In this document: positions 16,501-62,106 of the stretch, one piece after another
Numbering within the stretch: position 1 is the stretch's first letter
Layout: every line of letters begins with the position of its first letter
Source of the DNA: Acidobacteriota bacterium
GTDB lineage: Bacteria > Acidobacteriota > UBA4820
Direction: 5' to 3'
Assembly (NCBI GenBank): GCA_029559035.1
Contig: JAKQCT010000061.1
Location: forward strand, 94,162-158,161
Length of the DNA: 64,000 bases
The notes under the pieces: model-generated
The model's database searches: none
What the model saw: the letters and a program-made list of their open reading frames with translations, nothing else
Told to the model about the DNA's origin: nothing
Position numbers and translations under genes: made by a program

Positions 16501-18075
16501 TGAGTGTCGACATCTGACGGATGGAACATTTGCTCCGGTTGAAGTCGATATCCAACCGTTTGTCATTGGATCGTATACCCCCCCTGTGTTGAAATATATG
16601 TATATGCTGCCATCATGATATACTCCTCCCCAGATTATCATCTTGGATCCAGTCCATACTGCTGAGTGCCACATTCTTGCAGATGGGGTTGTTGCCTCTA
16701 CTGAAGTTCCTATCCATTGACCAGTAGCTGGGTCGTATCTTCCTCCATCATTATAATAATATCTATTCGTACCACTACTGCTGTACCCTCCCCAAATTAT
16801 CATTTCACTTCCAGTCCATATAGCACTAGGATGGCTTCTCGCCGAAAGAGGGTTGGAATCTTCTGATATTAATAACCATGAATCTGATGATGGATTGTAT
16901 CGTCCTCCGTTTTTATAGTAGGTTGCGCCATTAAGCCCTCCCCAGACTATCATTTCAAGACCGGTCCATACCGCGGCACTCGATCCTCTTGGCGTAGGGA
17001 CATTAGAACTTGCAGAGATTCCCGTCCAATTATCGGTAGATGGATTATAAAGACCTCCAGTACTCAATGCCGTTAATTCATGATCGTGAAGAATAAAGCC
17101 ACCCCATATGATCATTTCAGTTCCAGTCCAAACCGCACAGTGACATATCCTCTCACAAGGCATATCATCCAAAATCCCGTTGTCCCAGCCCTCAACACAT
17201 CCACTTTCCATTACCGGCGGCAAGTACATTGAAACATTTCCTTCGGTCTTTGGCAGATTTTTTATCACCTCTTGGCCTTTTAACCATTCTTCTGAAGAGA
17301 CTTTCTTGAAGGTCATTCCTTCAACGATTATCTCTCCTTCATTCTTTAAAGCGGTGTGAAGTATCACAAAACAATCATTCTTCTCTATCACCCCGGATAT
17401 CTTCCCTTCTTCGGGTATCTCTTGGAACATCTTTTCGAATTCTTTTTCCGACAACCCTATAGAATGATCTTCAGGATCAAGTCTATCCATTTCCGGTTCG
17501 GAGTTTTTCATCTCCAGCCTGTAAGTCATCTTGCTGTACTTGCCTTCGGGATATGAGCAGAAGTTCTCTGTGGTTAATTTCTTCCGTATTTCTTCTGCTT
17601 TATCTCTCGTCTCCTTGTGGAACCTCTCATCATTCGCGTACCAGTTCCTGACGAGTCTGTCGGCGAGGACGGGCCTGGCGAGGCACTCTGCTATCAGGTA
17701 TGGGTCGTTATTGAGGGCTTCGAAAAGTTCGTTCAGCGTGGCAGGATCCTTGGTCCCTTTCGCCATCCTGTCCATCTCGGCCTGGAGCTGATCGCCGGTT
17801 ATGGGGCGGTACCAGTACTTTTCAAGGGCGGCGGATTTCTTGAGATAGTCCGTGACCTTGTTCTCTATCGTTTCTTTCGAGACCATCGTTTCGAAGGCGG
17901 GCTTCGGGGTCTTGTTCTCCTTCGGCCAGATGCGGTGGTTGTAATATACCTTCTCTATCGCCTCCTGCGCCTTCACCCTCTGCTCGATTGTCAGAGGCTC
18001 GCGCCCGAGAGCCGAAAAAGATGAAAGCATCAGAATTCCGGAAAACACAAAGAGAATAAGATCCCCTCTCTTCAT
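13513..18075 (-). CDS. giant secreted Kelch-repeat beta-propeller protein (~16 blades) with Ig-like region, DNRLRE-like domain and C-terminal FN3-like Cys-bracketed module
   Basis: Signal peptide MKRGDLILFVFSGILMLSSFSALG. About 16 repeats of the form RxxHTAVWTGSEMIVWGG...GGRYNPxTDxW. The C-terminal third has Ig-like segments, then SVQSRLSQAQRTLVMFDLSAIP...ATLELYA...GSWTEAGVTWTNQP (DNRLRE-like, ~13908-14388), then a terminal ~120 aa module shared with the FG-GAP protein. Confidence 0.8.
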   Translation of the reverse strand: MKRGDLILFVFSGILMLSSFSALGREPLTIEQRVKAQEAIEKVYYNHRIWPKENKTPKPAFETMVSKETIENKVTDYLKKSAALEKYWYRPITGDQLQAEMDRMAKGTKDPATLNELFEALNNDPYLIAECLARPVLADRLVRNWYANDERFHKETRDKAEEIRKKLTTENFCSYPEGKYSKMTYRLEMKNSEPEMDRLDPEDHSIGLSEKEFEKMFQEIPEEGKISGVIEKNDCFVILHTALKNEGEIIVEGMTFKKVSSEEWLKGQEVIKNLPKTEGNVSMYLPPVMESGCVEGWDNGILDDMPCERICHCAVWTGTEMIIWGGFILHDHELTALSTGGLYNPSTDNWTGISASSNVPTPRGSSAAVWTGLEMIVWGGLNGATYYKNGGRYNPSSDSWLLISEDSNPLSARSHPSAIWTGSEMIIWGGYSSSGTNRYYYNDGGRYDPATGQWIGTSVEATTPSARMWHSAVWTGSKMIIWGGVYHDGSIYIYFNTGGVYDPMTNGWISTSTGANVPSVRCRHSAVWTGSEMIIWGGDNAYIDGYQNSGGRYNPVSNTWVITSVNSNTPSARLGHVAIWTGSEMIVWGGIDEDDYANTGGIYIPTNDTWNATSESANVPQARVSFSGIWTGIELIIWGGHDRYGKSLNTGGRYNPSSDDWVPTSRINNPEKRTDHTAVWTGTEMIVWGGLTYTDNYYPLYTGGKYNTSTDSWISTSTGANCPMPRHLHTAVWTGSEMIVWGGHNIGSAYLNCGGKYNPISDTWSSTSLDINVPASRFRHTAVWTGSEMVIWGGDGYLPTPKNDGGRYNPSTNSWLSTSIGVNCPSVRSYHTSVWSGTEMIVWGGNNNYEYYNDGGKYNPLNDSWQPTSTGVNLPSMRKDHTAVWTGSEMIIWGGLFYDGSSSFILNTGGRYNPHLDAWNATSTGTNCPEERYWHSVVWTGSEMIVWGGFRSDGSYGYNLNSGGKYYPLEDKWVVTSTLAPVPVGRYDHSAVWTEDSMIIWGGQSSWNGHLGGIYYPGTFIQPSISGSTSNTCPSSSVSLSIPASYSSYQWNLDGSQISGATSSAYEATVSGSYTVSVTDSNSCSGTSDSHSVTITPCIPNIIYQSHGTFSQVTGDGDSYFERGEKWSVPVTVTNSGNTPASNVTAVFSGNGITVCNPTGSFGTIAAGGTGTYAYSFVIDDDFTPCGGNINFNLGSKVCTELTPAGADETNLFLVQVGQIAAGVPTDLVLQPSTADSYVNQGSAGTNYGSGATMSVQSRLSQAQRTLVMFDLSAIPENSVINSATLELYASSAPTTGLTLNVHKITGSWTEAGVTWTNQPSFTSTANASITGGTSTGWKIWNIASLVQDWVDGTSDNYGLIVKGSVENDKTALTYIFASKENGTSGNRPILRINYTPPTTMNCDYVGSGECDAVLTECAPGDTYENGQTWSGTSQSWPSLTGATGYKLYRGIQSGLPNLLTADPDSCLRYEGSSTSIDLSADDPSSEIGRLYWYIVSGTNGSGEGPAGNGRMVNSSGVCE

Positions 18076-20188: not shown

Positions 20189-20425
20189 GTGATGAAAGAA
20201 CAGGCGAAGCGGTCGACCATCTATCTTGACGAGGCTCTGCACAAGGCTCTGCGGATGAAGGCGGCCAGCACCGGAAGCACGATCAGCGAACTCGTGAACG
20301 ACGCCGTGCGCGATTCTTTGCGTGAAGACCAGGAAGACCTCGCGGCGTTCGAGGAGAGGGTCAAAGAACCGGAAGTCTCCTATGAAGCGCTCTTGAAAGA
20401 CCTAAAGGCTCATGGAAAGATATAG
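20189..20425 (+). CDS. relB: type II antitoxin (RHH/RelB-DinJ-like)
   Basis: 78 aa, charged, ribbon-helix-helix-like N-terminus. Overlaps the downstream toxin by 14 nt. Confidence 0.55.
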   Translation: MMKEQAKRSTIYLDEALHKALRMKAASTGSTISELVNDAVRDSLREDQEDLAAFEERVKEPEVSYEALLKDLKAHGKI

Positions 20426-20666
20426 GCAGGTATTCAAGAGGTCGGTCGCCAAAGACCTGCGGCCCATCCCCAACCGCGGTGTGGCAAGGATCCTCGACCG
20501 CCTGAAAGCCCTATCCGAAAATCCCCGCCCACCCGGATGCGAGAAGCTTTCCGGCCAGGAGCGGTACAGGATCAGACAGGGTAGTTTTCGCATCATATAC
20601 GAGATCAGGGACAAGATACTGCTTGTCGTCGTCGTGAAGATAGCCCACAGGAAAGAAGCGTATTAG
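20412..20666 (+). CDS. relE: type II toxin, RelE/ParE (StbE) family mRNA interferase
   Basis: ENPRPPGCEKLSGQERYRIRQGSFRIIYEIRDKILLVVVVKIAHRKEAY matches the RelE/StbE C-terminal signature. Confidence 0.75.
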   Translation: MERYRQVFKRSVAKDLRPIPNRGVARILDRLKALSENPRPPGCEKLSGQERYRIRQGSFRIIYEIRDKILLVVVVKIAHRKEAY

Positions 20667-20670
20667 CCAG

Positions 20671-20908
20671 GAAGCGCTGATGGCTGACGCCAGACTGAAG
20701 GCTGAAGGGTCAACAAGGAAATGATTCCACAAATTTAAAATTTAATCTTTAAAATTTGATATTTAATATTCAAGCGAAGCCGCATGGCTGACGCCAGGCT
20801 GAAGGCTGAAGGCTGAAGGGTCAATAAGGAAACAGATTCCTCAATTTTTCACTTTTCAATTTTCATTTTTAAATTTTCAATCACGGTTAAATGCCCGGCG
20901 CAGCCGGC
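20671..20908 (+). repeat. modular intergenic repeat, 2 tandem units (locus R1)
   Basis: Each unit has tggctgacgccag, (gctgaag)2-3, the tcaa(c/t)aaggaaa..gattcc.caatttt core, an AT-rich (ttttcaa)n block, and a terminal hairpin (caagcgaagc / ccggcGCAgccgg). It ends at the macro-domain gene stop. Confidence 0.8.
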
Positions 20909-20909
20909 T

Positions 20910-21431
20910 TTAACCTAAATGCTTCGCCGATTCCATGAACGCCTGGTATGTCTCGTCGTCGAAGAGGACTATGTGGACCTCTTCGGGGTATTCGTGGGAT
21001 TCGAAGAAATCACGGACCGTATGCAGGAGTATCTCCGCGCCGTTTCTGACCGGGAAGCCCGCTATGCCCATCCCGACCGCCGGCATGGCGATCTTCGCGA
21101 ATTTCCACTCCTCGGCCCTTTTCAACGAATTGATAACGGCGTTCCGCAGGCTATCTTCAGTGCACGGTTCCCTCGTGCCCATAGCGGCCGCGTGGATGAC
21201 ATAATCGGCGGGAAGCAGTCCGGCGCCCGTGACAACCGCCTCTCCCAGCGGAATGGATCCTATCCTGTCGCACTCCCGCTGGATCGAGGGGCCTCCCTTT
21301 TCCCTGATGGCCCCGGCGACGCCTCCTCCAAGCACCAGTTCCTTGTTGGCGGCGTTGACTATCGCGTCGACCTGCATTTCGGTGATATCGCCTTTTTCTA
21401 TGAAGATGCGGCTGTTCAGGATTCCAGCCAT
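20910..21431 (-). CDS. macro domain protein (O-acetyl-ADP-ribose deacetylase, MacroD/YmdB-like)
   Basis: GDITEMQVDAIVNAAN...GGGVAGAI and HAAAMG motifs. Confidence 0.85.
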   Translation of the reverse strand: MAGILNSRIFIEKGDITEMQVDAIVNAANKELVLGGGVAGAIREKGGPSIQRECDRIGSIPLGEAVVTGAGLLPADYVIHAAAMGTREPCTEDSLRNAVINSLKRAEEWKFAKIAMPAVGMGIAGFPVRNGAEILLHTVRDFFESHEYPEEVHIVLFDDETYQAFMESAKHLG

Positions 21432-28294: not shown

Positions 28295-28370
28295 TCAACT
28301 CCTTGCGGGCCTCAAAAGCCCAATAAATGGTATATCCTGGAGCAGGTTAAGTCAAGGCGATAACTCGCCG

Positions 28371-28431
28371 GCGCTGAAGGCTGATGGCTGATGGCTGATG
28401 GCAAGAATAAATAGGGAACAGGAATTGATCC
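28371..28431 (+). repeat. degenerate partial unit of the modular repeat (gctgaag then (gctgatg)3, with a diverged core)
   Basis: gcgctgaaggctgatggctgatggctgatggcaagaataaatagggaacaggaattgatcc. Confidence 0.5.
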
Positions 28432-28565
28432 CGCCCAAACAAGCCAGTGCGTGAAGAACCGGGATCTCGCGCCAAAACAGATCGAACCATGTCCCACTAT
28501 CCGCGAGCGAAAAAGCGCCTCCATCACTAATGACGGATTGGCGAGGCGGAGTGTCTATGGCGATA

Positions 28566-28833
28566 GGGCGGAAGGCTGACGGCTGAAGGCTGGTGTCCTT
28601 CGGACGGCGCTGAAGGCTGAAGAGTTGAAGCGCTGAAGTTAAATATGGAATGGGATCTCTTTGGTAGGCGCGGGCTTTACGCCCGCGGGCGCGCCCGTGA
28701 AGGGCGCGCCTACCCAAAAACCCCACGCTCTCGCTCTCTCCCTTTGCAAAGGGGGTTCAAGGGGGTTTTCCCACAATTTTTCACTTTTCAATTTTCAACT
28801 TTCATTTTTCATTGCAAGCGAAGCATCGCCCCC
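28566..28833 (+). repeat. modular repeat unit (locus R2) carrying a ~110-bp GC-hairpin insertion
   Basis: The heptamer block includes the gtccttcggac stem-loop sub-module. The core is interrupted at 28661-28770 by three GC palindromes. The unit then resumes with ttttcacttttcaattttcaactttcatttttcattgcaagcgaagcatcgccccc. Confidence 0.7.
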
Positions 28834-28845
28834 GGGCAATTGATA

Positions 28846-30072
28846 TCAGTCTGTTTTTACTTCTTTTTTTTCTCTGCTTGCAGGCACGAGGAAGATCATG
28901 AGGCCGAGCGCTGCGACGAGGAAGATCGAAACGAATACCGCTACCGTCCGCATCCCGTAAAGGTCCATGATCAGCCCGCCGGCGAAGGGGAAGGCGATCT
29001 GCGGGACCGTGTTCAAGAACCCGTGCCACGCCAGCACCGAGTGCCTGTCCTCGGGAGCGGGAAGCGCCATCATCCAGCTGTTCTGCGTCGTGAACTCCGA
29101 CGAGACATAGATCCCCAGCGCGACGGCCAGGAGGATGTAGGAGAAGGTGAAACTGCCGAAGATCATCAGCACCGTAGCTACGAGGAAAGCCGTCGTCGAG
29201 AAGACCACCGGGAACTTGTTGTTGACGCTGTCCCCCCACCTCCCCAGCGCAAGGCTCGCGACGGCCTGGGATAGGAGCAGGAAGACGCCGATCGAGATGG
29301 CGGCCGAGCTCGCCCCGTGCCTCTTCTCCATGTAATCGACGATATAGAAGGAGCTGACGATAAGGTAGCATCCCCTGAGTATCCACCTGAAGCCGCACAT
29401 CGGGATGAGCCAGTTGTATTTTTCCGCTAGCTTCCGAAAGGAGACATAAGGCGTTTCGTGGACGCCCTCGAAGCTCTCCTCCTTCGTCCCGAAGAAGAAG
29501 AAGGTCCCGACGAACATCGTCAGGAACGCGATGAGGAAGAGGACAGACGCCCTCGCCGCGTCGAAAGAAACCCCGTAGATGCGTGAGGCTGCCCATACGC
29601 CCAGCGCCCCCGTGAGTGTCTGGCAGAAGAAGATCAGGCCGAAGGCCCTCCCCCTCGCCGAGGGGTCGAGTATCTTCGCCATGTAGCTGAGCCATAGCGG
29701 CAGCACGAGTCCGATGGACGCGCAGTGGACGGCCCAGGCGATCAATATCACCGCGGCCGGCTTGCCGTAACCTCCGTAGAGCATTATCGATACGGCCAGC
29801 AATGGAAGCGTTACCGGGATGTGAAGAAGTATCAGGGGAAGTTTAAGCTTCCCCGCGCCGCCGAACAGCTTCGGGGAAAGCAATTGGGGAATCCCGACTC
29901 CGACGGAAGCGATGACCGGAACGAGGGCGATCTCGATATGGCTGGCTCCCAGGTCCTTCAGGATGACGGGTAGAATGGCGGACATCGAGATGATGTTCAT
30001 CCCCGCCCCCCAGAAAAGTTCTACGAGGCCCAGGAAAACCGTGTTCCGGGCGTGGACGCGTCCCTGTTCCAT
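28846..30072 (-). CDS. MFS transporter
   Basis: 12 predicted TM helices; MFS-like loop motifs. Confidence 0.7.
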   Translation of the reverse strand: MEQGRVHARNTVFLGLVELFWGAGMNIISMSAILPVILKDLGASHIEIALVPVIASVGVGIPQLLSPKLFGGAGKLKLPLILLHIPVTLPLLAVSIMLYGGYGKPAAVILIAWAVHCASIGLVLPLWLSYMAKILDPSARGRAFGLIFFCQTLTGALGVWAASRIYGVSFDAARASVLFLIAFLTMFVGTFFFFGTKEESFEGVHETPYVSFRKLAEKYNWLIPMCGFRWILRGCYLIVSSFYIVDYMEKRHGASSAAISIGVFLLLSQAVASLALGRWGDSVNNKFPVVFSTTAFLVATVLMIFGSFTFSYILLAVALGIYVSSEFTTQNSWMMALPAPEDRHSVLAWHGFLNTVPQIAFPFAGGLIMDLYGMRTVAVFVSIFLVAALGLMIFLVPASREKKEVKTD

Positions 30073-46016: not shown

Positions 46017-46045
46017 GGGGCGGTCATCCGCCCCTTTTTCTTTTT
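46017..46045 (+). terminator. rho-independent terminator after rubredoxin
   Basis: ggggcgg-tcat-ccgcccc followed by tttttcttttt. Confidence 0.65.
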
Positions 46046-46128
46046 GGCTGAATTGCATTTTCCCGTTCCTTGCCATAAAATAATTTCTTGATAATTGAAA
46101 AACATCGCTCTTGAGAAGGGGGTATCAA

Positions 46129-49100
46129 ATGAAAAGATCCTTCGCTTTTCAGGTCTCTTTACTAATGCTGGCGGCGGTCGTACTGGCGGGCGTATCTTCA
46201 TTAGGGCAGGACAAGCTTCTTGCCGGCGGCGGCAGGGTCGATCTTCCGCCCGGCGCGAGCGGCGACTGGTGGTCCACCGTCCAGCAGAACATCATGGAGG
46301 AGGAATACCATTTTTCCCCCTCATCAGGCGAGAAGAACGCCCTCTACCAGGCGCCCAACAGGGCGCATGGTTTCAGGAGCTACTTCAACGAGAAGGGCGT
46401 CAGGCTCGTCCCGAGGACGGAGGAGAAGCCTTCTTGGGAGTTGGGACTGGAGCTTGCCGGAAAGGCTGAAGGCTCAAGGCTGAAGGCTGATGTAAAAGCC
46501 GACGGCGACAGGATCGAGATAAACAGGGGCGATATCGTCGAATGGTACGTCAACGACGAGAACGGACTCGAACAGGGCTTCACGATTTTGAGGCCGCTTC
46601 CCTCTACCGAACCGGGCAAACTGAGCCTCGACATGAAGCTGACGGGCAACCTGCTCCCCCGTTTTTCTGAAGACGGCCTGGAAGTGACATTTTTCAAAGA
46701 GGGGGGTATCAGCGTCCTGAGCTACCGTGAACTGATCGTTAAAGATTCGGAAGGCAGGCTTCTTGCATCCGGTTTTATCCCCATCCGGGGAGGCATCAGG
46801 ATCTCGATCGACGACGATAATGCGATATATCCCATCACCATCGACCCGATGCTTTCTGCTCCCGCCTGGACCTGGGAACCGAACCAGGCTCTCGCGAGTT
46901 TCGGTCAATCCGTCTCATCGGCGGGCGACGTGAACGGCGACGGCTACAGTGATGTCATCATATCGGCGCACAGATACGACAACGGCCAGAACGAAGAAGG
47001 CAGGGTGTATGTCTTTCACGGTTCGGCTTCAGGGCTCTCTTCCAGCCCGGACTGGACCGCGGAATCCGACCAGGCTGAAGCCTATTTCGGACACAGTGTT
47101 TCCACGGCAGGGGATGTGAACGGAGACGGTTACAGCGATGTGATCATCGGCGCGAGATTGTTCGATAACGGACAGACGAACGAAGGAAGGGCTTTTGTCT
47201 ACCACGGATCGTCTTCGGGGCTTTCCCCGACACCCGCATGGACAGCCGAATCCGACCAGGGAGAGGCATTTTTCGGCATGAGCGTTTCGACTGCCGGCGA
47301 CATCAACGGGGACGGATATTCGGATGTCATCGTGGGGGCGCCATATTATCAAAGCGGCGTGCTGGAAGAAGACGAAGGAGCAGTTTTCTTTTATCCCGGC
47401 TCTTCCTCCGGGTTGAGCCCGACTTCCACCTGGAGCAGGCAGGGAAACCTTGCCGGGGCCAATTTCGGGTACAGCGTTTCCAACGCCGGGGATGTGAACG
47501 GTGACGGATACAGCGACATAATTGTCGGAGCCAGATACTATTCCAACGGACAGTCGGAAGAAGGAAGGGTGTATGTCTATCCGGGATCCAACAAGGGTCT
47601 GCAGGCAGCGATCTGGATCAAGGAGCTGGACATAGCGAACGCCAATTTCGGGTACAGCGTCTCGGACGCCGGCGACGTGAACGGCGACGGATACGGAGAC
47701 GTGACCATTGCCGCCCCCGGAACGGCTCTCGCGTATGTCTATCACGGTTCTTCCTCCGGCCCGGGTTCTTCCGCGGCATGGACGGGAACGGGAGCTTCCT
47801 GCGTGTCTTCAGCCGGCGACGCCAACGGCGACGGGTTCGGCGACATCGTAACAGCGTCCGCCGCATACGACAACGGTCAGACAGACGAAGGAGCCGGGTT
47901 CGTCTTTTTCGGGTCGTCTTCGGGGCTTTCCGCGACAGCCGATTGGATCGGGGAGTCAAATCAGACTTACGCCTATCTCGGTAGTTGTTCGTCCGCGGGA
48001 GATGTCAACGGCGACGGTTTCTCGGACATTCTCCTTGGTTCTACCTATTACAGCAACGGAGAAACCTCGGAGGGAAGGGCGTTCCTTTATTATGGAAGCG
48101 GGTCCGGCATCGCCGCAACTCCCTCCGCGGTCCGAGATTCAAATCAGGCGGAGGCTAAATTCGGGACGAGCGTTTCATCGGCAGGCGACGTCAACGGGGA
48201 CGGCTACGGCGACATCCTGGTAGGAGCTCCTTACTACGACAACGGCCAGGCTGACGAAGGCGCCGCTTTTGTCTATTACGGATCATATTCCGGACCATCT
48301 TCAACTCCCGACTGGATCGGGGAATCCAATAACGCTGGAGCGTTGTTCGGCTTCAGCGTGGCTCCCGCGGGCGACATCAACGGCGACGGGTTCGGAGACA
48401 TCCTAGTCGGAGCACCGGAGTTTACCAACGGGCAAGCCGAAGAAGGAGCTACGTTCGCTTATTACGGATCCGCGACCGGGCTCTCTGCGACTCCCGACTG
48501 GACCGTGGAATCTGACCAGGGATACTCATATTTCGGATGCAGTGTCGCCTCCGCAGGTGATGTGAACAGTGACGGCCGACATGATGTTATTGTCGGAGCC
48601 CGTTATTATTATCTTGGCGAGAACTGGGAAGGAGCCGCTTTTGTTTATCACGGATCGGCCGCGGGATTGTCCCTGACCCCCAGCTGGACAGGGCAATCTG
48701 ACCAGGAGGATGCCAGTTACGGTTTCAGCGTTTCCGGCGGAGGGGATATCAACCTCGACGGTTACGACGATATTATCGTCGGCGCTCCCCTTTTCGACAA
48801 CGGAAACACCGACGAGGGCGCCGCATTCGTTTATCTGGGATCGGCCTCCGGCGTCCATTCCTCCCATTACTGGCGGGGCGAATGCAACCAGGACGGCGCC
48901 TGGTATGGATACAGCCTCGCCTCTTTGGGAACTGTCAACAGGGATACCGCCCCGGAGATCGTCATCGGAGCTCCCCGTTATTCGTATGGCAGTTTATCCG
49001 AAGCTGGAAGGGTCGATATCCACACTCTCTACTCGCTTCCCGACCAATCCCCTGAATGGACGACGGGATCTGACCAGGCAGGTGCCATGATGGGTTACTC

Positions 49101-50222: not shown

Positions 50223-50250
50223 GGGCGCGATCCGTCGCGCCCTATTTTTT
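50223..50250 (+). terminator. rho-independent terminator after the FG-GAP gene
   Basis: gggcgcga-tccg-tcgcgccc followed by tatttttt. Overlaps the stop of the convergent small ORF. Confidence 0.5.
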
Positions 50251-50469
50251 CCGCAGCTCCCTTCTTTTCCTGAACCACTCCTCCGCGGCTGTCAGCGCGC
50301 CCGCAGACCATTTGCCGAAGCCGACTCTTGTCATGATCCTGTCCAGGCCGTTTATCATCCAAAGGATCCATCTTTCGGCTGTGAAGACAAGAACGGCCAG
50401 CAGGAAGGCCGCCAGGATGGTCGTGACGAGAAGAATCAGCGTGATCATGGACCCATTATAACCCGTCAA
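50242..50469 (-). CDS. small membrane protein, hypothetical
   Basis: 75 aa with one strong TM helix (ITLILLVTTILAAFLLAVLVF) and a basic C-terminus. Confidence 0.4.
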   Translation of the reverse strand: MTGYNGSMITLILLVTTILAAFLLAVLVFTAERWILWMINGLDRIMTRVGFGKWSAGALTAAEEWFRKRRELRKK

Positions 50470-50470
50470 G

Positions 50471-50734
50471 GGCTGAGAGCTGAAGCCTGACTTCAGTCTG
50501 AAGGCTTAAGGCTGAAGGTTGAAGTTTGATAGGGGAAATGGATTCCATAATTTTAAGCTTTTCAATTTTCAATCTTCAATTTTCAATGCAAGCGCAGCTT
50601 GCCGGGCTGGCGCCAAGGCCTAGGGCTGAAGCCGGATGGCTGAAGTTCTATAAGGAAATGGATTCCATAATTTTGAACTTTTCAATTTTCATTTTTCAAA
50701 TTTCAATGCAAGCGCAGCTTGCCTGATAATCCCC
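50471..50734 (+). repeat. modular intergenic repeat, 2 units (locus R3)
   Basis: ggctgagagctgaag...ctgaaggttgaagtttgataggggaaatggattccataattttaagcttttcaattttcaatcttcaattttcaatgcaagcgcagcttgcc, then a second unit ending caagcgcagcttgcctgataatcccc. Confidence 0.8.
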
Positions 50735-50747
50735 TCAACTGTATAAT
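50719..50747 (+). promoter_or_regulatory. candidate promoter for the AsmA-like gene using the repeat terminus as -35 (TTGCCT-N17-TATAAT)
   Basis: ttgcct 50719-50724 (the end of the repeat hairpin), tataat 50742-50747 preceded by tg. The ATG is at 50821. Confidence 0.35.
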
Positions 50748-52805: not shown

Positions 52806-53056
52806 GCGGAAGACTGACGGCTGGCGCCAAGTATGAAGGCGGACTAGCTAGGAGGCGGGGAAGCTAGGAAGCTTGAAAGCTCCATAAGGAAATATATTCC
52901 ACAATTTTAATATTTTCATTTTTCAATCTTCAATTTTCAATTCAGGCGAAGCCATACGGCTATCGCCAGCGCTGAAGGCTGAAGGCTGAAGGTTCAATAG
53001 GGAAAATGATTTCTTAATTTTTCAATCTTCAATTTTCAATTCAGGCGAAGCCTGCT
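52806..53056 (+). repeat. modular intergenic repeat, 2 units (locus R4)
   Basis: ...ccataaggaaatatattccacaattttaatattttcatttttcaatcttcaattttcaattcaggcgaagcc..., then gcgctgaaggctgaaggctgaaggttcaatagggaaaatgatttcttaatttttcaatcttcaattttcaattcaggcgaagcctgc, ending at the adh stop. Confidence 0.8.
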
Positions 53057-54096
53057 CAGCTCAGTGTCAGCACCTTCGCGCCCCTGATCTGCCTCTGCTT
53101 GATCTGCTTGAGGGCCGTCACGGCGTCTTCAAGGTGAAAGAGCTCGACCTGAGGCTTGATGCCGAATTTATCCGCGAGCTTCAGGAATTCGTCGATGTCT
53201 TTCCTGGTCACGTTGGCCACGCTCTTGATTTCTTTCTCCTGCCAGAGGTGTTTTCCGTAATCCAGCAGCATCAGCCCCCCCTTGTCCGTGTTCTCTTTTC
53301 TTATGGCGTTGATAACAAGCCTTCCCCCCGGCTGAAGATTCTCCATGGCGCATACTACCGTTTTCCACACGGGAGTGGTGTCGATCACCGCCTTCATTCT
53401 CGCGGGGGGCTTGTCCGAAATGTCGCCCGTCCATTCCGCCCCGAGTTCTTTCGCGAACGCCCTCTCCTTGGCGCTTCTTGCGAAGACATAGAACCTGTTC
53501 TCCGGGTAGAGCGACTTGGCCAGCTTGAGAACAAGGTGCGCCGAAGCGCCGAACCCAGTGAACCCCAGATGGTCCCCCTCCTTTATGCCCGAGAGCTTGA
53601 GCGACCTGTATCCCACTGCTCCCGCGCAGAGTAGTGGCGCGGTCTCCTCGTCGGTCAAGCTGCGCGGCACCTTGAAGGCGAAGTTCTCGTCCGCGACCAT
53701 GTACTCGGCGTACCCGCCGTCCATGTCCCTTCCGGTCGCGATGTAACCCTCGCATAGGTTCTCCATCCCGCCCCGGCATTTCTCGCATTTCCCGCACGCC
53801 CAGCCTATCCATCCTACTGCGGCTCTTTCCCCAATCGTGAACTTGCGGGCGCTCGTGCCCCTCGCGACGACAGTCCCGACCACCTGGTGTCCCGGAATTA
53901 CGGGGAATTCCGGCGGAGGCGTCCTCCCCTCTATCTCGTCGAGTTCCGTGTGGCAGACGCCCGATGCCGAGACCTTGACGAGTATCTCGTTCGTCTTCGG
54001 CTCGGGGACCTCGCACTCGATCAGGTCCAGCAGGCGCCTGTCGTCGAGCACGCTTCCCGTCCTGTTTATCACCCACGCCCGCATCTTAGAAGGCAT
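53056..54096 (-). CDS. zinc-dependent alcohol dehydrogenase (MDR family)
   Basis: GVCHTELDEIEG (catalytic Zn), structural-Zn Cys cluster CGKCEKCRGGMENLC, GxGxxG-like NAD site. Confidence 0.85.
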   Translation of the reverse strand: MPSKMRAWVINRTGSVLDDRRLLDLIECEVPEPKTNEILVKVSASGVCHTELDEIEGRTPPPEFPVIPGHQVVGTVVARGTSARKFTIGERAAVGWIGWACGKCEKCRGGMENLCEGYIATGRDMDGGYAEYMVADENFAFKVPRSLTDEETAPLLCAGAVGYRSLKLSGIKEGDHLGFTGFGASAHLVLKLAKSLYPENRFYVFARSAKERAFAKELGAEWTGDISDKPPARMKAVIDTTPVWKTVVCAMENLQPGGRLVINAIRKENTDKGGLMLLDYGKHLWQEKEIKSVANVTRKDIDEFLKLADKFGIKPQVELFHLEDAVTALKQIKQRQIRGAKVLTLS

Positions 54097-56835: not shown

Positions 56836-57320
56836 CCCTCATCCCCGTGTTTGTGACTCTCTGGCCGGTGGGGCTCGGCGAGGCGCTTGACCTCCTCGAT
56901 GAACTCGCTGATGTCTCCGAACCTCCTGTAAACGCTCGCGAAACGGACATACGCAACCTGGTCGAGCTCCTTGAGCCTGTCCATGATGATGTTGCCTATC
57001 GTGCTCGTCGGGACTTCCCTGTCGGGAGAGTTCTGAATGAGGCCTTCTATCTCGTCAGCGATCCCCTCGAGCGTCGAGGAAGGCACGGCCCTCTTCTCGC
57101 AAGCCCGGAAAAGCCCGGCGAGGAGCTTTTCCCTGTCGAACTTCTGACGGTTGCCGTCCCTCTTGACGACCTGGAACGGGATCGTTTCTATCCTTTCGTA
57201 GGTAGTGAACCTGCGGTGGCAGTCGAGGCACTCGCGCCGCCTCCTGATGCTTGCGCCCTGGGAGACCTCCCTGGAATCCACCACTTTATCTTCCATATGA
57301 CCGCAAAATGGGCAGAGCAC
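56832..57320 (-). CDS. nrdR: transcriptional repressor NrdR
   Basis: MLCPFCGH...DSRE zinc ribbon (CxxC...CxxC) plus ATP-cone. Confidence 0.9.
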   Translation of the reverse strand: MLCPFCGHMEDKVVDSREVSQGASIRRRRECLDCHRRFTTYERIETIPFQVVKRDGNRQKFDREKLLAGLFRACEKRAVPSSTLEGIADEIEGLIQNSPDREVPTSTIGNIIMDRLKELDQVAYVRFASVYRRFGDISEFIEEVKRLAEPHRPESHKHGDEG

Positions 57321-57381
57321 TGTGCACCTCCTTGAAAAAGTCTACAACATATAGTTATAAGTGTAAATAGCAAGTCAATAT

Positions 57382-57673
57382 AGGGCTGATGGCTGGCGCC
57401 TAGGCTGAAGGCTGAAGGCGGATGGCTGGTGTCCTTCGGACGGCGCTGAAGGCTGAAGCGCTGAAGTTCAATAAGGAAAATGATTCCTCAATTTTGATAT
57501 TTTCAATTTTCAATTTGATATTTTAAATGCAGGCGAAGCCTGCCGGGCTGACGCCAGAACTGAAGAGCTGAAGCGCTGAAGGCTGAAGTTCAATAAGGAA
57601 AATGATTCCACATTTTTTCACTTTTCAATCTTCACTTTTCATTTTTCAATTCAAGCTACGCTTGCCTATCCCC
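57382..57673 (+). repeat. modular intergenic repeat, 2 units (locus R5), including the gtccttcggac sub-module
   Basis: ...ggctggtgtccttcggacggcgctgaaggctgaagcgctgaagttcaataaggaaaatgattcctcaattttgatattttcaattttcaatttgatattttaaatgcaggcgaagcctgcc | gggctgacgccagaactgaag...caagctacgcttgcctatcccc. Confidence 0.85.
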
Positions 57674-57697
57674 TATTTGCCTGACCTCCCATCCTTT

Positions 57698-58762
57698 TCA
57701 GTAATAAAGATTGGGACCCCAGTTCGGAGTTTCGCCTTTATTGATGGCTTCCATGAAACAATTCGCCTCTTTCCAGAAGCTTGAACATTTCCCTAAAAAC
57801 TCGAGGACTACCTTTTTTTCTCCCTTTTCCAACAATTCCTTGGCGAGCGTCAGGTTGGGCCCGAAAGTATCGAGGTTTGGAGAACCGGGCGACTCCGAAG
57901 CTTTCAGCAGGAAGCTCTTCGCCTCATCCATTTTCCCTTCGCGCAGGGCTATTCTCCCCAGGACAAGGTTGCCGTCATAAAGCGCGTTGCCGTAATTCCA
58001 GTTCTTCATGTCCTTTTGGGCATTTTTCAGCAGAAGTCTGGCATAAGTTCCGGCCTTTTCGATCTCATCAGCTTCAAAAGCACATTTCGCAAGATCGTTA
58101 AGCAGAGGGAACCGGTACTCGTCATTTGTCTTTGCAAGAGCATAAGCTTCTTCCAAAAGCGCGAGAGCTTTGGCGTTCCTGTTTCTTGTCGATCCGGCAT
58201 CATCCTTTTCCGTCTGCCTTCCCAGGCGGTACAAGTGCGCAAGTTCTTCCGGCCATTTTGGATTGGCAGGTTCGAGTTTCTTGCATCTCAGGAACAGTTC
58301 TTCGGAGGTTGTTCTTTCGTAAAGCGTAAGAGCCCGCGCCGCGTTGCCGAGTATCGAGGCATCGGCCGGGTTTCTCTTCACGTGCCTGAGCCAGAGCTTC
58401 TTGCCTTTTTCATAAGCCTTTCCGTCAATCCTTGGATCGAGGGCGCACTCATAAACGGCCATCTTCGAGGCGGGAAAGTTATTGATGACCCAGAGAGCGT
58501 GCTTGGCGAACAACTTCCTGGCCTCAGGAGAGGATAACCGCTCCGTTCCATAATGTATAAGCAGTTTTTCCCTGGCCGCCAGATCAGAAGGGTTCTTTTT
58601 CACCTGGTTCTCTAGAGATGTAATCTCCTCTGCCGACATATTCCACTTCGAGATCAAATAGTCAGCATCATTCGATTCGTCTTCCGGTGGTCCCGCGATA
58701 GCGAAAACGGAAAACAGAAGGATCGCCGCAGAAAGGAATAATCTGTTGTTAGATCTGCGCAT
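57698..58762 (-). CDS. exported TPR-like repeat protein, hypothetical
   Basis: Start at the internal ATG (MRRSNNRLFLSAAILLFSVFAIAG, signal peptide) preceded by GGGGAGG. Helical repeat composition throughout. Confidence 0.55.
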   Translation of the reverse strand: MRRSNNRLFLSAAILLFSVFAIAGPPEDESNDADYLISKWNMSAEEITSLENQVKKNPSDLAAREKLLIHYGTERLSSPEARKLFAKHALWVINNFPASKMAVYECALDPRIDGKAYEKGKKLWLRHVKRNPADASILGNAARALTLYERTTSEELFLRCKKLEPANPKWPEELAHLYRLGRQTEKDDAGSTRNRNAKALALLEEAYALAKTNDEYRFPLLNDLAKCAFEADEIEKAGTYARLLLKNAQKDMKNWNYGNALYDGNLVLGRIALREGKMDEAKSFLLKASESPGSPNLDTFGPNLTLAKELLEKGEKKVVLEFLGKCSSFWKEANCFMEAINKGETPNWGPNLYY

Positions 58763-58787
58763 ACTTACCTCCCCTTCAACCATTTCC

Positions 58788-58987
58788 TTTTTTGCTTTTC
58801 ATTTTTCACTTCTCATTTTTCAATCTTCAATTTTAAATGCAGGCGAAGCCTGCCTGGCTGACGCCAGAACTGAAGCGTGAAGCGCTGAAGCGCTGAAGTT
58901 CAATAAGGAAAATGATTCCTCAATTTTGATATTTTCAATTTTCAATTTGATATTTAAAATGCAGGCGAAGCCTGCCTCCCCCCCTCC
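58788..58987 (+). repeat. modular intergenic repeat (locus R6): partial AT-rich/hairpin unit plus one full unit; 3' end overlaps the PPC-protein CDS terminus
   Basis: ttttttgcttttcatttttcacttctcatttttcaatcttcaattttaaatgcaggcgaagcctgcc | tggctgacgccagaactgaagcgtgaagcgctgaagcgctgaagttcaataaggaaaatgattcctc...aaaatgcaggcgaagcctgcctccccccc. Confidence 0.85.
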
Positions 58988-59772
58988 TGCCACGCGTTGG
59001 CGAGCCTGTTGTAGAGGATGGTGGTCGACTGGTTTGTTCCGCTGATGATCGTGATCGGCACCCACGATCCGTCCTTGGGGAACATCGCCTTGAGGGCGGC
59101 TCCCTTCTTCAGTTTCAAAAGGGTCGTCTCCTTGACAGTGAAATTGGTCCACTCGTTTCCGTTGATCACCACCCTTGTTCCGCTGTAGAACCTGTTCCCG
59201 AAGATCAAAAGCCTGAAGGGATTCCCTGCCTTTGAAAGACTGCTGACGGAGGGAGCTTCTCCCTGAGCACCCACGTCGACCCTCAGGAAGTAATCTGTCG
59301 GTCCCGGTTCGAAGCAGTAGTAAATAGTCGAGAGGCTGACGCCGATGATATAGGTCCCAGGCTCGAGATAAGTGTTCACGATCTCGGGGTTGCCGCAGGT
59401 TATCCCGCAGGTGTAATCGCCGCACTCGTTCAGGTTCAAGAGGTTAAGGTCCTGATCCATCAGGTATAGGTCTGCATCCACATATCCGTAAAAAAGCAGG
59501 TTCACGGAGTAATAACCGGCCTGTGAAACCGTTAAGGCGTAAAGGTCCTCGATATATTCGTCGCCGTCATCATACCCGAAGTAAAGACAGCCTTCGGTAT
59601 CTTGCGTCGAGACCGAACCGTAAACTCCCATCCCGGGATGAAGCGTCTGATAGGCGTCTCCGCCCCCCGCGAGGGTTATGCAGCCGTTAGGCTCCGCTTC
59701 GTTTATGGTCTGCGAGAATGCCGAGATCCCCACAAAAATAACAATCGACAGAACAAAAAGAGCCTTTTTCAT
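58954..59772 (-). CDS. secreted protein with pre-peptidase C-terminal (PPC)-like domain and Ig-like domain
   Basis: Signal peptide MKKALFVLSIVIFVGISAFS. EAEPNG...GGGDAYQ...DDGDEYIEDLYALTVSQAGYYSVNL...DADLYLMDQD matches PPC-domain motifs. The last 8 codons plus stop lie inside repeat R6. Confidence 0.6.
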   Translation of the reverse strand: MKKALFVLSIVIFVGISAFSQTINEAEPNGCITLAGGGDAYQTLHPGMGVYGSVSTQDTEGCLYFGYDDGDEYIEDLYALTVSQAGYYSVNLLFYGYVDADLYLMDQDLNLLNLNECGDYTCGITCGNPEIVNTYLEPGTYIIGVSLSTIYYCFEPGPTDYFLRVDVGAQGEAPSVSSLSKAGNPFRLLIFGNRFYSGTRVVINGNEWTNFTVKETTLLKLKKGAALKAMFPKDGSWVPITIISGTNQSTTILYNRLANAWQEGGRQASPAF

Positions 59773-61181: not shown

Positions 61182-61255
61182 CTTTCCTCCAAGGAATTAT
61201 TATATCAAAGACCGGGAACGGGGAAGGATGGATCGTCCGCAGGGGGCGCACTATC

Positions 61256-61565
61256 AAGAGCTGAAGGCGGATGGCTGAAGGGTCAATAGGGAAAATGACT
61301 CCACCAAATTAGATTCTTCATTTTTCAATCTTCCATTTTTAATTCAAGCGAAGCTCGTGCAGCGCTGAAGGTTTAAGGCTGAAGCTCATTAAGGAAATGA
61401 ATACCACAAATTTCAAATTTGAAATTTAATCCTTAAAATTTAAAATGCAGGCGCTGACTGCAGGGCTGAAGTGCTGAAGTTCAAAAAGGAAATGGATTCC
61501 TCAATTTTAATATTTTCAATTTTCATTTTTCAATTTAAAATTCAAGCGAAGCTTGTAACTCCCCC
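61256..61565 (+). repeat. modular intergenic repeat, 3 units (locus R7)
   Basis: Three consecutive units, each with gctgaag-type heptamers, a tcaa.aaggaaa.g..t.c core, an AT-rich (ttttcaa)n block, and a terminal caagcgaagc / gcaggcg.. hairpin. It ends tcccc, 5 nt before the STAS gene stop. Confidence 0.8.
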
Positions 61566-61570
61566 TTTCC

Positions 61571-61900
61571 TCAGAACGATCTCAGCGCTTCTTCTTCCGT
61601 GTCGTAGATGTCGAAAACGGTGGAGAGCTTCGTGATGTCGAGAATGCCCCTGACATTCGTGGTCGGATTGGCAAGCTTGACGACCGCCTTGTAACGCTGG
61701 GCGCTGACGAGCGATGAAACAAGCTCGGCGAGGGCGGCGGAACCCATGATGGGGATGCCTCCCATCTCGAGGACGATCCTTTTTACTCCCTTGCGGAGCA
61801 TTTCGAGGACTGTCTCCCTCAAGAGGTTTTCTTCCTGGCCTATCTTTCCGGTCAGGCGTAAAAGAGCCACTCCGTTCATAAGGATGGTTTCTGACTGCAT
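61571..61900 (-). CDS. STAS domain protein (anti-sigma factor antagonist, SpoIIAA-like)
   Basis: Start at the internal Met (MQSETILMNGVALLRLTGKI...). Conserved phosphorylatable Ser region (GIPIMGSAALAELV). Confidence 0.7.
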   Translation of the reverse strand: MQSETILMNGVALLRLTGKIGQEENLLRETVLEMLRKGVKRIVLEMGGIPIMGSAALAELVSSLVSAQRYKAVVKLANPTTNVRGILDITKLSTVFDIYDTEEEALRSF

Positions 61901-61983: not shown

Positions 61984-62106
61984 CTTGCCGGGCTGATGGT
62001 TAACCCCAGACCTGAAGTTCAATAAGGAAATGGATTCCACAGGTTTAATATTTTCAATCTTCATTTTTCAATTCAAGCGAAGCTTGTTCTCTCCGCCTGT
62101 TACCTT
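61984..62106 (+). repeat. modular intergenic repeat, 1 unit preceded by an orphan hairpin (locus R8)
   Basis: caggcggcgcttgcc gggctgatggttaaccccagacctgaag ttcaataaggaaatggattccacaggtttaatattttcaatcttcatttttcaattcaagcgaagcttgttctctccgcc. Confidence 0.8.

Follow-up and report, generated by a model that had tools for sequence, protein, structure and literature searches.

A modular intergenic repeat ending in a hairpin

The window analyzed here, a 64,000-nt stretch of contig JAKQCT010000061.1 (positions 94,162 to 158,161, forward strand) from the Acidobacteriota bacterium assembly GCA_029559035.1, is ordinary chromosome, encoding FtsK, Lon, GlyQS, NrdR and a hybrid-cluster protein, among others. 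Between its genes lie at least 15 units of a repeat, in eight intergenic spots at 20.7, 28.6, 50.5, 52.9, 57.4, 58.8, 61.3 and 62.0 kb (Table 1). They were located with an nhmmer profile and by searching for direct repeats and for the core motif. A unit is about 105-120 nt long and keeps a fixed order of modules: (GCTGAAG)n, the G-heptads; a conserved core, GTTCAATAAGGAAAATGATTCC, with a GGAA-N5-TTCC mini-palindrome inside it; (TTTTCAA)n, the T-heptads; and a terminal stem-loop with a GC-rich stem of 5-6 bp and a 3-nt loop. The T-heptad tract forms an island of about 45 nt with very low GC in a genome of 57% GC. A linker, C-GGGCTGA(C/T)G, often follows the stem-loop and runs into the next unit. 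Units are arranged head-to-tail, one to three per array, with numbers of G-heptads and T-heptads that differ among copies, and optional linker modules (GGC-N4-GCC, GTCC-TTC-GGAC) may stand between them. The stretch 57529-57666, singled out by a first-pass annotation of this DNA, spans from the terminal hairpin of one unit to that of the following unit.

All units of the window lie on the + strand, as do 27 of 27 G-heptad dimers. The strand is shared by nine of nine repeat loci, in convergent and divergent gene settings alike, at a density of about one locus per 7 kb. We take the hairpin to be the module that closes, at the 3' end, each unit of a non-coding intergenic repeat which is present in many copies and restricted to the lineage of this uncultured Acidobacteriota bacterium.

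The hairpin is kept as a structure

The first-pass annotation held that the terminal hairpin shows compensatory changes between copies, an A/G change in the 5' arm being matched by T/C in the 3' arm. Exact-match counts and the window alignment bear out both the hairpins and the matched change. The 15-mer GCAGGCGAAGCCTGC occurs three times (57529, 58839 and 58961; 0.00 expected from shuffles) and CAAGC-NNN-GCTTG five times (50589, 50709, 57652, 61543 and 62074; 0.05 expected). CCGGC-GCA-GCCGG is found at 20895-20907, and CAGGC-GAA-GCCTG at 53042-53054, where the stem is only 5 bp because the outer pair is T.C. Four positions given earlier need correction by 1-10 nt (58843 to 58839, 61547 to 61543, 62084 to 62074 and 50708 to 50709), and the copy at 20771, read then as CAAGC-GAA-GCTTG, is in fact CAAGC-GAA-GCCGC, a decayed stem in which two of five pairs form. 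At the variable pair the window copies (alignment A1) show G-C six times, A-T six times, and A.C and A.A once each (Fisher's exact test of G/A versus C/T, p = 0.005, which assumes independent copies and so overstates the evidence). The 26 hairpin columns of the alignment (about 21-24 nt per copy) fold as RNA with a mean minimum free energy (MFE) of -5.6 kcal/mol on the + strand and -6.1 on the - strand, against about -2.0 for shuffled sequences; folded as DNA the mean is -4.0 against -0.95.

A larger alignment, named in the first-pass annotation as a potential refutation, came out for covariation. A pattern lying outside the hairpin recovered 40 loci (given L-numbers below) from metagenomes of sludge and digesters; in these loci the profile matched another 92 times. 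In an alignment of 68 distinct copies made by MAFFT with no structure fitted (A2), the 6-bp hairpin and the central 4-bp helix were named and their pairs counted. Paired cells amount to 82.4%, compared to 78.6 +/- 0.7% after shuffling and to 32-46% when the 3' partner is slid, and the covariation score is 0.138 versus 0.092; none of 500 shuffles reached either observed value. The variable pair is GC in 37 copies, AU in 19, CG in 2 and something else in 10 (Fisher's exact test of G/A versus C/T, p = 2e-13, a figure that overstates the evidence because repeat copies are not independent). A covariance model built with the hairpin structure, which favors that structure by construction, gave 87 matches, 69 of them distinct (A3). 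In this alignment paired cells reach 85.0% versus 78.8% shuffled and further pair types number 22 versus 14.7 (0 of 500 shuffles in each case), while all six hairpin pairs show a two-sided change in at least one copy.

The variety of stems makes the same point. Among 48 distinct 15-mers in the fixed frame, the five inner pairs are all Watson-Crick in 19, and these include five distinct inner stems (CAGGC, CAAGC, CACGC, CGCGC and AAGGC). At the same place other copies carry GCACGC/GCGTGC, AAAGGC/GCCTTT, CGCGC/GCGCG, ACGGC/GCCGT or CCGGC/GCCGG, or hairpins that leave the frame altogether: ACGGC-GCCA-GCCGT, CCGGC-GCA-GCCGG set inside GGTTAAA...TTTAACC, GCCGCGG-ATTC-CCGCGGC, and one stem of 11 bp. 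The loops include GAA, GCA, GTA, ACA, TAA, TAC, TCC, ATT, CCA, GAC and others. Pairing is therefore kept while the loop varies, as had been proposed, and stems of unrelated sequence share one position. Conservation is imperfect, with 15-20% of stem cells unpaired and many terminal copies decayed. The GGAA-N5-TTCC helix says nothing about pairing in either direction because it is almost invariant, and RNAalifold found no consensus structure on either strand, in the gappy 68-sequence alignment or in a cleaned version.

Descent of the units might have produced the same association. When a neighbor-joining tree is built from the columns outside the hairpin, Fitch parsimony needs 19 changes for the GC/AT state of the variable pair, versus 18 +/- 1.6 with tips shuffled, so kinship among units fails to explain the co-occurrence of paired letters. 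(The result may equally fit many compensatory events, module-wise shuffling of hairpins, or a poor tree.) Two hairpin versions are the most frequent, GCAGGC-GAA-GCCTGC and GCAAGC-GCA-GCTTGC. They differ in their loops as well and may have spread by copying or gene conversion; since they carry the G-C/A-T switch, that switch alone may reflect few events. By our reading of the stem list, at least about ten more compensated changes of a pair are required to account for the less common stems. The stem-loop is kept as structure, not as sequence.

Table 1. Repeat units and partial units in the window, with their terminal hairpins
Feature	Position	Strand	Hairpin and remarks
Unit 1 of two-unit tandem	20694..20804	+	Degenerate hairpin 20771-20783 CAAGC-GAA-GCCGC, 2/5 pairs; unit lacking in L035 and L052
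Unit 2	20805..20915	+	Extended hairpin GGTTAAA-TGC-[CCGGC-GCA-GCCGG]-C-TTTAACC 20885-20915; inner hairpin 20895-20907
Composite locus	28366..28849	+	G-heptads with variant core 28366-28440; GTCC-TTC-GGAC module ~28596-28606
Split unit of composite locus	28366..28849	+	Nested, unrelated ~130-nt repeat ~28640-28770, then T-heptads and decayed hairpin 28814-28828 GCAAGC-GAA-GCATCG
Five G-heptads only (GGCTGAAGGCTCAAGGCTGAAGGCTGATG), not a full unit	46458..46492	+	Within FG-GAP protein coding region
Unit	50472..50603	+	GCAAGC-GCA-GCTTGC 50588-50602
Unit	50631..50723	+	GCAAGC-GCA-GCTTGC 50708-50722
Unit	52865..52957	+	Decayed, GGC-GAA-GCC 52945-52953
Unit	52978..53055	+	CAGGC-GAA-GCCTG 53042-53054
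Linker and full unit	57383..57544	+	G-heptads and GTCC-TTC-GGAC mini-hairpin ~57430-57440; unit 57452-57544, hairpin GCAGGC-GAA-GCCTGC 57529-57543
Unit	57574..57666	+	CAAGC-TAC-GCTTG 57652-57664; 32 nt to stop codon (57698) of - strand TPR gene
Partial unit, T-heptads and hairpin	58783..58853	+	Begins at start codon of - strand TPR gene; GCAGGC-GAA-GCCTGC 58839-58853
Unit	58884..58976	+	GCAGGC-GAA-GCCTGC 58961-58975; overlaps 3' end of - strand open reading frame 58954-59772
Unit	61253..61359	+	CAAGC-GAA-GCTCG 61345-61357; one A.C mismatch = G.U pair on - strand
Unit	61370..61462	+	Variant TGCAG-GCGCTGA-CTGCA 61446-61462
Unit	61465..61557	+	CAAGC-GAA-GCTTG 61543-61555; 16 nt to stop codon (61571-61573) of - strand STAS gene
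Single unit	62003..62088	+	CAAGC-GAA-GCTTG 62074-62086

Orthologous sites and strain differences

Sites shared with related metagenome loci show how individual hairpins change. In L045 (84% identical to the window), the hairpin at site 57652 has changed in the loop alone (CAAGC-TAC-GCTTG in the window, CAAGC-TGC-GCTTG in L045) while the heptads have diverged. At site 58839 the window's GCAGGC-GAA-GCCTGC faces GCAAGC-GCA-GCTTGC, a compensated difference and likely a conversion, because the L045 form equals the other common hairpin version. At site 58961 L045 has GAAGGC-AAA-GCCTGC, a one-sided break. The unit behind a duplicated (paralogous) TPR gene in L045 carries a unique GCACGC-GAC-GCGTGC, a compensated transversion pair; the unit behind the other TPR copy, in L045 and in the window, has CAAGC-T(A/G)C-GCTTG.

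L037 is 81% identical to the window overall, and yet the unit at the 3' end of the Macro-domain gene is about 95% identical over some 105 nt, its private 31-nt extended hairpin included. The sole stem change there is a C.A on the element strand, which equals a G.U on the other. Two loci that are at least 99% identical to the window, L035 and L052, differ from it by exactly one 104-nt unit between direct repeats, which the window has at 20694-20804 and the two loci lack (21310-21490 in L035 and L052), so that the arrays are length-polymorphic within the species. In these loci a 2-nt deletion also turns CCGGC-GCA-GCCGG into CCGG-CGC-CCGG, with the hairpin retained. Recombination between the direct repeats of units would thus add or remove entire units as blocks; units also receive insertions of other small repeats.

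A proposed role at mRNA 3' ends

Gene context, taken from crude open reading frames corrected with Pfam, is biased. Between co-directional genes the unit is antisense in 12 contexts and sense in 2 (p = 0.013), and its hairpin end falls mostly about -40 to +30 nt from an opposite-strand stop codon. For example, the hairpin at 53042-53054 ends 1 nt from the stop codon (53056-53058) of a - strand alcohol-dehydrogenase gene, and the outer stem at 20909-20915 overlaps the stop codon (20910-20912) of the - strand Macro-domain gene. Stem mismatches are A.C in 18 cases and G.T in 4 (7 and 2 in well-aligned copies). Such an excess fits RNA of the opposite strand, because an A.C of the element strand becomes a G.U wobble there, and folding of the hairpin as RNA is also slightly stronger on that strand. 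Weak as each is, these independent hints all point to a function within the 3' untranslated region (UTR) of the upstream gene. It would appear that the hairpin acts as an mRNA 3'-end stem-loop in opposite-strand transcripts, a tentative reading of the sequence to which we give a probability of roughly 0.45.

Because units are mostly antisense to the flanking genes, the hairpin comes first in the transcript, right at the stop codon. As the first element after the upstream gene's stop codon it would protect or process the 3' end of the mRNA, in the manner of REP (repetitive extragenic palindromic) elements; REPs stabilize upstream mRNA, and those near stop codons affect translation. The A/U-rich heptads behind the hairpin would be single-stranded and cleavable.

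Several observations weigh against such a role. Both the strand and the RNA level of hairpin action rest on weak statistics: 7 mismatches versus 2 is no significant difference, and the A.C/G.T asymmetry could come from a mutation spectrum with a strand bias. Internal array units keep the consensus hairpin better than gene-proximal terminal units (5.03 versus 4.15 of 6 pairs), the opposite of what a 3'-end role predicts, though the internal units may simply be younger. In 39 of 68 copies the loop is a GNA closed by C-G on the element strand, the d(GCGNAGC) motif, and this points to single-stranded DNA of the other strand. Units are found in divergent promoter regions too (e.g. at 50.5 kb and 62.0 kb), the one strand shared by all nine window loci needs more than transcription to explain it, and a terminating ribosome would melt a hairpin that touches the stop codon.

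In a further reading, which we regard as a long shot, the unit might be a portable, copy-number-tunable 3'-UTR device on the opposite strand and not selfish DNA. A hairpin abutting the stop codon, to be melted by the terminating ribosome, would be followed by unstructured A/U-rich heptads and then by C-rich, G-poor (CUUCAGC)n resembling a Rho-loading site; translation termination would thereby be coupled to Rho-dependent termination or mRNA decay, insulating neighbors from one another, with a strength set by the number of heptads and units.

By rough hand counts, a C-run (CTCCCCC, TCCCC) lies 1-12 nt past the hairpin in about 9 of 25 gene-proximal units, versus about 10% by chance. The runs occur in the window at 58976-58990, 61558-61566, 57667-57675, 50733-50738 and 28829-28834 and at several metagenome loci. 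On the gene strand they read as a GGGGAG-like purine run between stop codon and hairpin, and they may either belong to the element or reflect a preferred target.

Alternative explanations

The hairpin could instead be a mobilization signal, the unit being a non-autonomous element whose folded single-stranded DNA hairpin is recognized by a Y1/HUH transposase encoded elsewhere, of the RAYT (REP-associated tyrosine transposase) or IS200/IS605 type. The first-pass annotation also named transposase recognition hairpins as a candidate; we consider the mobilization reading rather unlikely, though a serious rival. Compensatory changes would then arise in copies that are still propagating, and inserted copies would decay, consistent with the better-kept hairpins of internal, presumably younger, units compared to terminal ones. 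High copy number in one narrow lineage, with none in the syntenic stretches of two relatives, favors mobility as well, as does the uncoupling of the variable pair's GC/AT state from the rest of the unit in the parsimony count. Transposition of a single strand can be linked to replication, as in IS608, and the single strand of all window copies fits such a process. Unit orientation relative to local GC skew, with 11 loci versus 9, points neither way. The loop sequence also agrees: GCGNAGC, a GNA loop closed by C-G, is present on the element strand in 39 of 68 copies but on the other strand in 7, and such triloops have exceptional stability in DNA (PMC13037366, PMC3201870). Against mobilization, the open reading frames examined by Pfam (the ~64 kb window and the locus fragments, including genes between inverted unit pairs) encode no transposase. 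The hairpin stands at one end only, with no inverted doublets, terminal inverted repeats, conserved flank or target motif; the single polymorphism observed is a tandem unit indel, which recombination explains; and an old orthologous copy retains its private hairpin across 19% genome divergence.

Inverted unit pairs had also been considered as the ends of a composite element. They are rare, lie more than 1 kb apart and enclose ordinary or Pfam-less genes, and the idea was rejected. A search for inverted repeats within three units turned up the local hairpin and chance arms of AT-rich sequence but nothing else; the two ends of a unit are not complementary, and no terminal inverted repeats were found.

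It is quite unlikely that structure is under no selection at all, a few hairpin versions having spread by copying, unequal recombination and gene conversion while intra-strand template switching in quasi-palindromes copied changes from arm to arm. Template-switch mutation does create and maintain perfect stems, compensated without selection (PMC8794818). Two common versions, which differ in loop too, account for the G-C/A-T switch, L045 has a whole alternative version at site 58839 as if by replacement, arrays turn over through unit indels, and the unpaired stem cells and decayed terminal copies would be expected. The list of stems is harder to accommodate: at least five inner stems and several unrelated ones out of frame would need many separate templated events, all ending as hairpins. 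Moreover, the private extended hairpin 20885-20915 is conserved across species-level divergence, and the deletion variant in L035/L052 still folds.

A DNA-level role in protein binding or topology, with AT-rich heptads beside a cruciform-prone palindrome binding nucleoid proteins or gyrase, is improbable; the first-pass annotation had proposed it in the form of REP-like gyrase/IHF sites. The very low GC of the T-heptad island suits it, as do one strand for all window copies and the conservation of the entire orthologous unit between the window and L037, beyond the hairpin; the hairpin, a true palindrome, has equal DNA stability on both strands. A 15-nt palindrome with a 3-nt loop is, however, very short for cruciform extrusion, the integration host factor (IHF) consensus (WATCAANNNNTTR) is not visible in the core on inspection, and sequence-specific binding predicts conserved sequence, whereas the stems vary freely.

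Least probable is that the hairpins are intrinsic (Rho-independent) terminators. In favor are GC-rich stem-loops at gene 3' ends and one - strand case (58975-58961, tail ATTTTAAATA) that satisfies a simple terminator rule. On the other side, T-rich DNA comes ahead of the stem on the + strand, the stem is followed on the - strand by an A-rich tract, stems are only 5-6 bp, the region 57300-59050 with its four hairpins has 3 terminator-like sites versus 2.7 expected with only one hairpin passing the rule, and textbook long-stem terminators with T-runs occur elsewhere in the same genome. The canonical intrinsic terminator was accordingly rejected, for lack of a U-tract and with terminator-like matches at chance level, and the "terminator-like" function suggested by the first-pass annotation falls with it, no U-tract being found on either strand. 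Nor is the hairpin a pre-existing gene terminator targeted by the repeat, because internal units have this hairpin too, always equally far from the T-heptads. A fold of the whole unit, pairing G-heptads with T-heptads, appears in some MFE structures and was rejected as no better than shuffles (mean z of -0.91 on the + strand and -0.87 on the - strand over 50 copies; -0.88 and -2.08 for a two-unit region).

Relation to known repeats and host range

Most knowledge of small structured intergenic repeats comes from a few cultured Proteobacteria and Firmicutes; uncultured phyla have hardly been studied in this respect. The present repeat most likely represents a family of this known class, closest in logic to REP/BIME (bacterial interspersed mosaic element) and BOX elements, and was set apart from those of E. 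coli and pneumococcus, respectively, by their descriptions. Like BIME and BOX elements it has a modular build, with a variable internal module number, in intergenic clusters. Like a REP it has a GC-rich imperfect palindrome repeated extragenically, here a 15-nt stem-loop at the same position in 68-69 distinct copies.

REP, BIME and REPIN sequences of enterobacteria and pseudomonads (PMC3116915, PMC3337134) are extragenic repeats of the hundreds-of-copies style around a short GC-rich imperfect palindrome, forming mosaics with other motifs and lying between genes, often at 3' ends, with structure kept while sequence drifts; all of this is shared. A REPIN, however, consists of two REPs in inverted orientation (PMC3337134). 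The present units run head-to-tail on one strand and form no inverted doublets, and so are not REPINs. They differ from REPs in a palindrome of only 15 nt, in two heptad arrays and a conserved non-palindromic core, and in lacking a GTAG-type 5' motif and, in the sequence examined (~64 kb and fragments), a RAYT.

BOX elements of Streptococcus pneumoniae, built as boxA-(boxB)n-boxC and proposed to affect expression of neighboring genes, are likewise modular, intergenic, about 100-200 nt long and non-coding, with a variable number of internal modules and no associated transposase. Their modules are 45-60 nt rather than heptads, their sequence and host phylum are unrelated, and their transcripts are predicted to fold globally, unlike the present unit (z about -0.9). 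The heptanucleotide repeats of cyanobacteria, known as STRR (short tandemly repeated repetitive) sequences, are also tandem heptamers in non-coding DNA, with variable copy number and nested small repeats. In the present family, from another phylum, the heptamers are different ones, GCTGAAG and TTTTCAA, and their arrays form two constant arms in a larger unit that also has a core and a terminal hairpin.

Bacterial miniature inverted-repeat transposable elements (MITEs), such as Correia/NEMIS, ERIC, RUP, RPE and YPAL (PMC2229807), share a length below 200 bp and a non-coding, multi-copy, mostly intergenic nature, and some are co-transcribed and alter mRNA stability (PMC2229807). The present unit has neither terminal inverted repeats nor a long stem-loop, and its observed polymorphism is a tandem block indel. 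Inspection of array ends showed no TA termini, target-site duplication or common flank; on the left the boundary is hard to place, since it merges gradually into heptads. The repeat is not a MITE in the usual sense. The d(GCGNAGC) mini-hairpin (PMC13037366, PMC3201870) is a structural motif and no genetic element. The exact GCGNAGC sits at the stem tip in 39 of 68 copies, with a GAA or GCA loop, and is not required, because about 40% of copies have other loops (TAC, ACA, ATT, TCC and others).

The distribution of the family appears narrow. The GlyS protein of the window is 95% identical to a protein cluster labeled 'Acidobacteriota bacterium'. The metagenome-assembled genome GCA_032942435.1 (contig JAWDGN010000018.1, 702 kb) in NCBI is essentially identical to the window over 20-41 kb and belongs to the same species, and copies are present in L037 and L045, at 81-84% nucleotide identity. 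Syntenic stretches of two relatives, with GlyS 81% and 60% identical, hold no copy. A scan of species-representative genome contigs with the core pattern gave only eight single chance matches in unrelated taxa, and neither viral contigs (pattern scan) nor plasmids and phages (blastn) matched the repeat. Rfam 15 had no match in the whole window at gathering thresholds, and at E <= 5 the region 57330-57700 gave only noise (9-18 bits, well under threshold). Searching the literature for the heptad strings brought up no relevant description of the repeat family. From its presence in L037 and L045 and its absence from the relatives and collections searched, the family looks confined to a narrow clade. 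One weak model match (L024:1257-1362, 37.6 bits), with a core-like motif GGAAAACAATTCC, comes from AT-rich sequence of a low-GC organism, directly upstream of a gene whose N-terminal sequence indicates ribosomal protein L11 (rplK). This match is probably due to chance and is not counted as a member.

An Acidobacteriota lineage from sludge and digesters thus has a dense repeat of its own, with an architecture (heptad arms and one terminal hairpin) unlike that of described families. Such repeats break metagenome assemblies and produce strain-level length polymorphisms. The dozens of natural hairpin variants offer a test set for selection versus templated mutation as the source of compensatory change. 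If it is true that hairpins abutting stop codons affect the fate of mRNA, the organism would have a genome-wide layer of post-transcriptional control.

Nested repeats and neighboring features

Other small repeats accompany the family. The repeat nested at 28640-28770, with GC-rich hairpins (GGCGCGGGCTTTACGCCCGCGGGCGCGCC...) and the palindrome CCCTTTGCAAAGGG, recurs at L034:393-505, L039:3255-3367 and L041:4115-4227; because of this recurrence it looks like a second family inserting into the first. An element of about 125 nt (...CCCACGGGCTTACGCCCGGGG...GGGATTTTAGTAAGGAATTC) lies between T-heptads and terminal hairpin, in opposite orientations, at L041:4126-4282 and L028:3070-3130, and behaves like a third, mobile small repeat. 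The linker module GTCC-TTC/TGC-GGAC is found in the window at 57425-57445 and 28590-28606, and a variant, GCAGGCGTGTCCTGCGGACAG, in eight distinct copies (L019, L031, L034, L039 and L048). In one hairpin subfamily the module overlaps the terminal stem, so that two mutually exclusive hairpins are possible, GCAGG-CGTGT-CCTGC or GTCC-TGC-GGAC. The G-heptads at 46458-46492 are in frame in a 1361-aa FG-GAP repeat protein (...AGKAEGSRLKADV...), on the same strand as the intergenic copies.

Textbook terminators are seen at about 46017-46050, after a rubredoxin gene (GGGGCGG-TCAT-CCGCCCC and a T-run), and at about 50226-50262, after the FG-GAP gene (GGGCGCGA-TCCG-TCGCGCCC and TATTTTTT). Judged by such sequences, the organism uses canonical terminators, unlike the repeat hairpins. 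Upstream of nrdR, about 80 nt within 57310-57390 are 100% identical between the window and L045, while flanking genes are 84-87% identical. This stretch has a promoter-like TTTACA-17-TAGACT and ACTATATGTTGT, which we take to resemble an NrdR box, and is probably an autoregulatory region under strong constraint. A 1520-aa Kelch/beta-propeller protein with a CBM96 domain (13513-18075, - strand) has internal DNA repeats of 150-162 nt; the gene may have been acquired, since its GC content of 0.46-0.50 is clearly below the window average of 0.57. A pair of genes for a ribbon-helix-helix (RHH) antitoxin and a ParE toxin, at 20189-20666, lies directly upstream of the 20.7-kb array.

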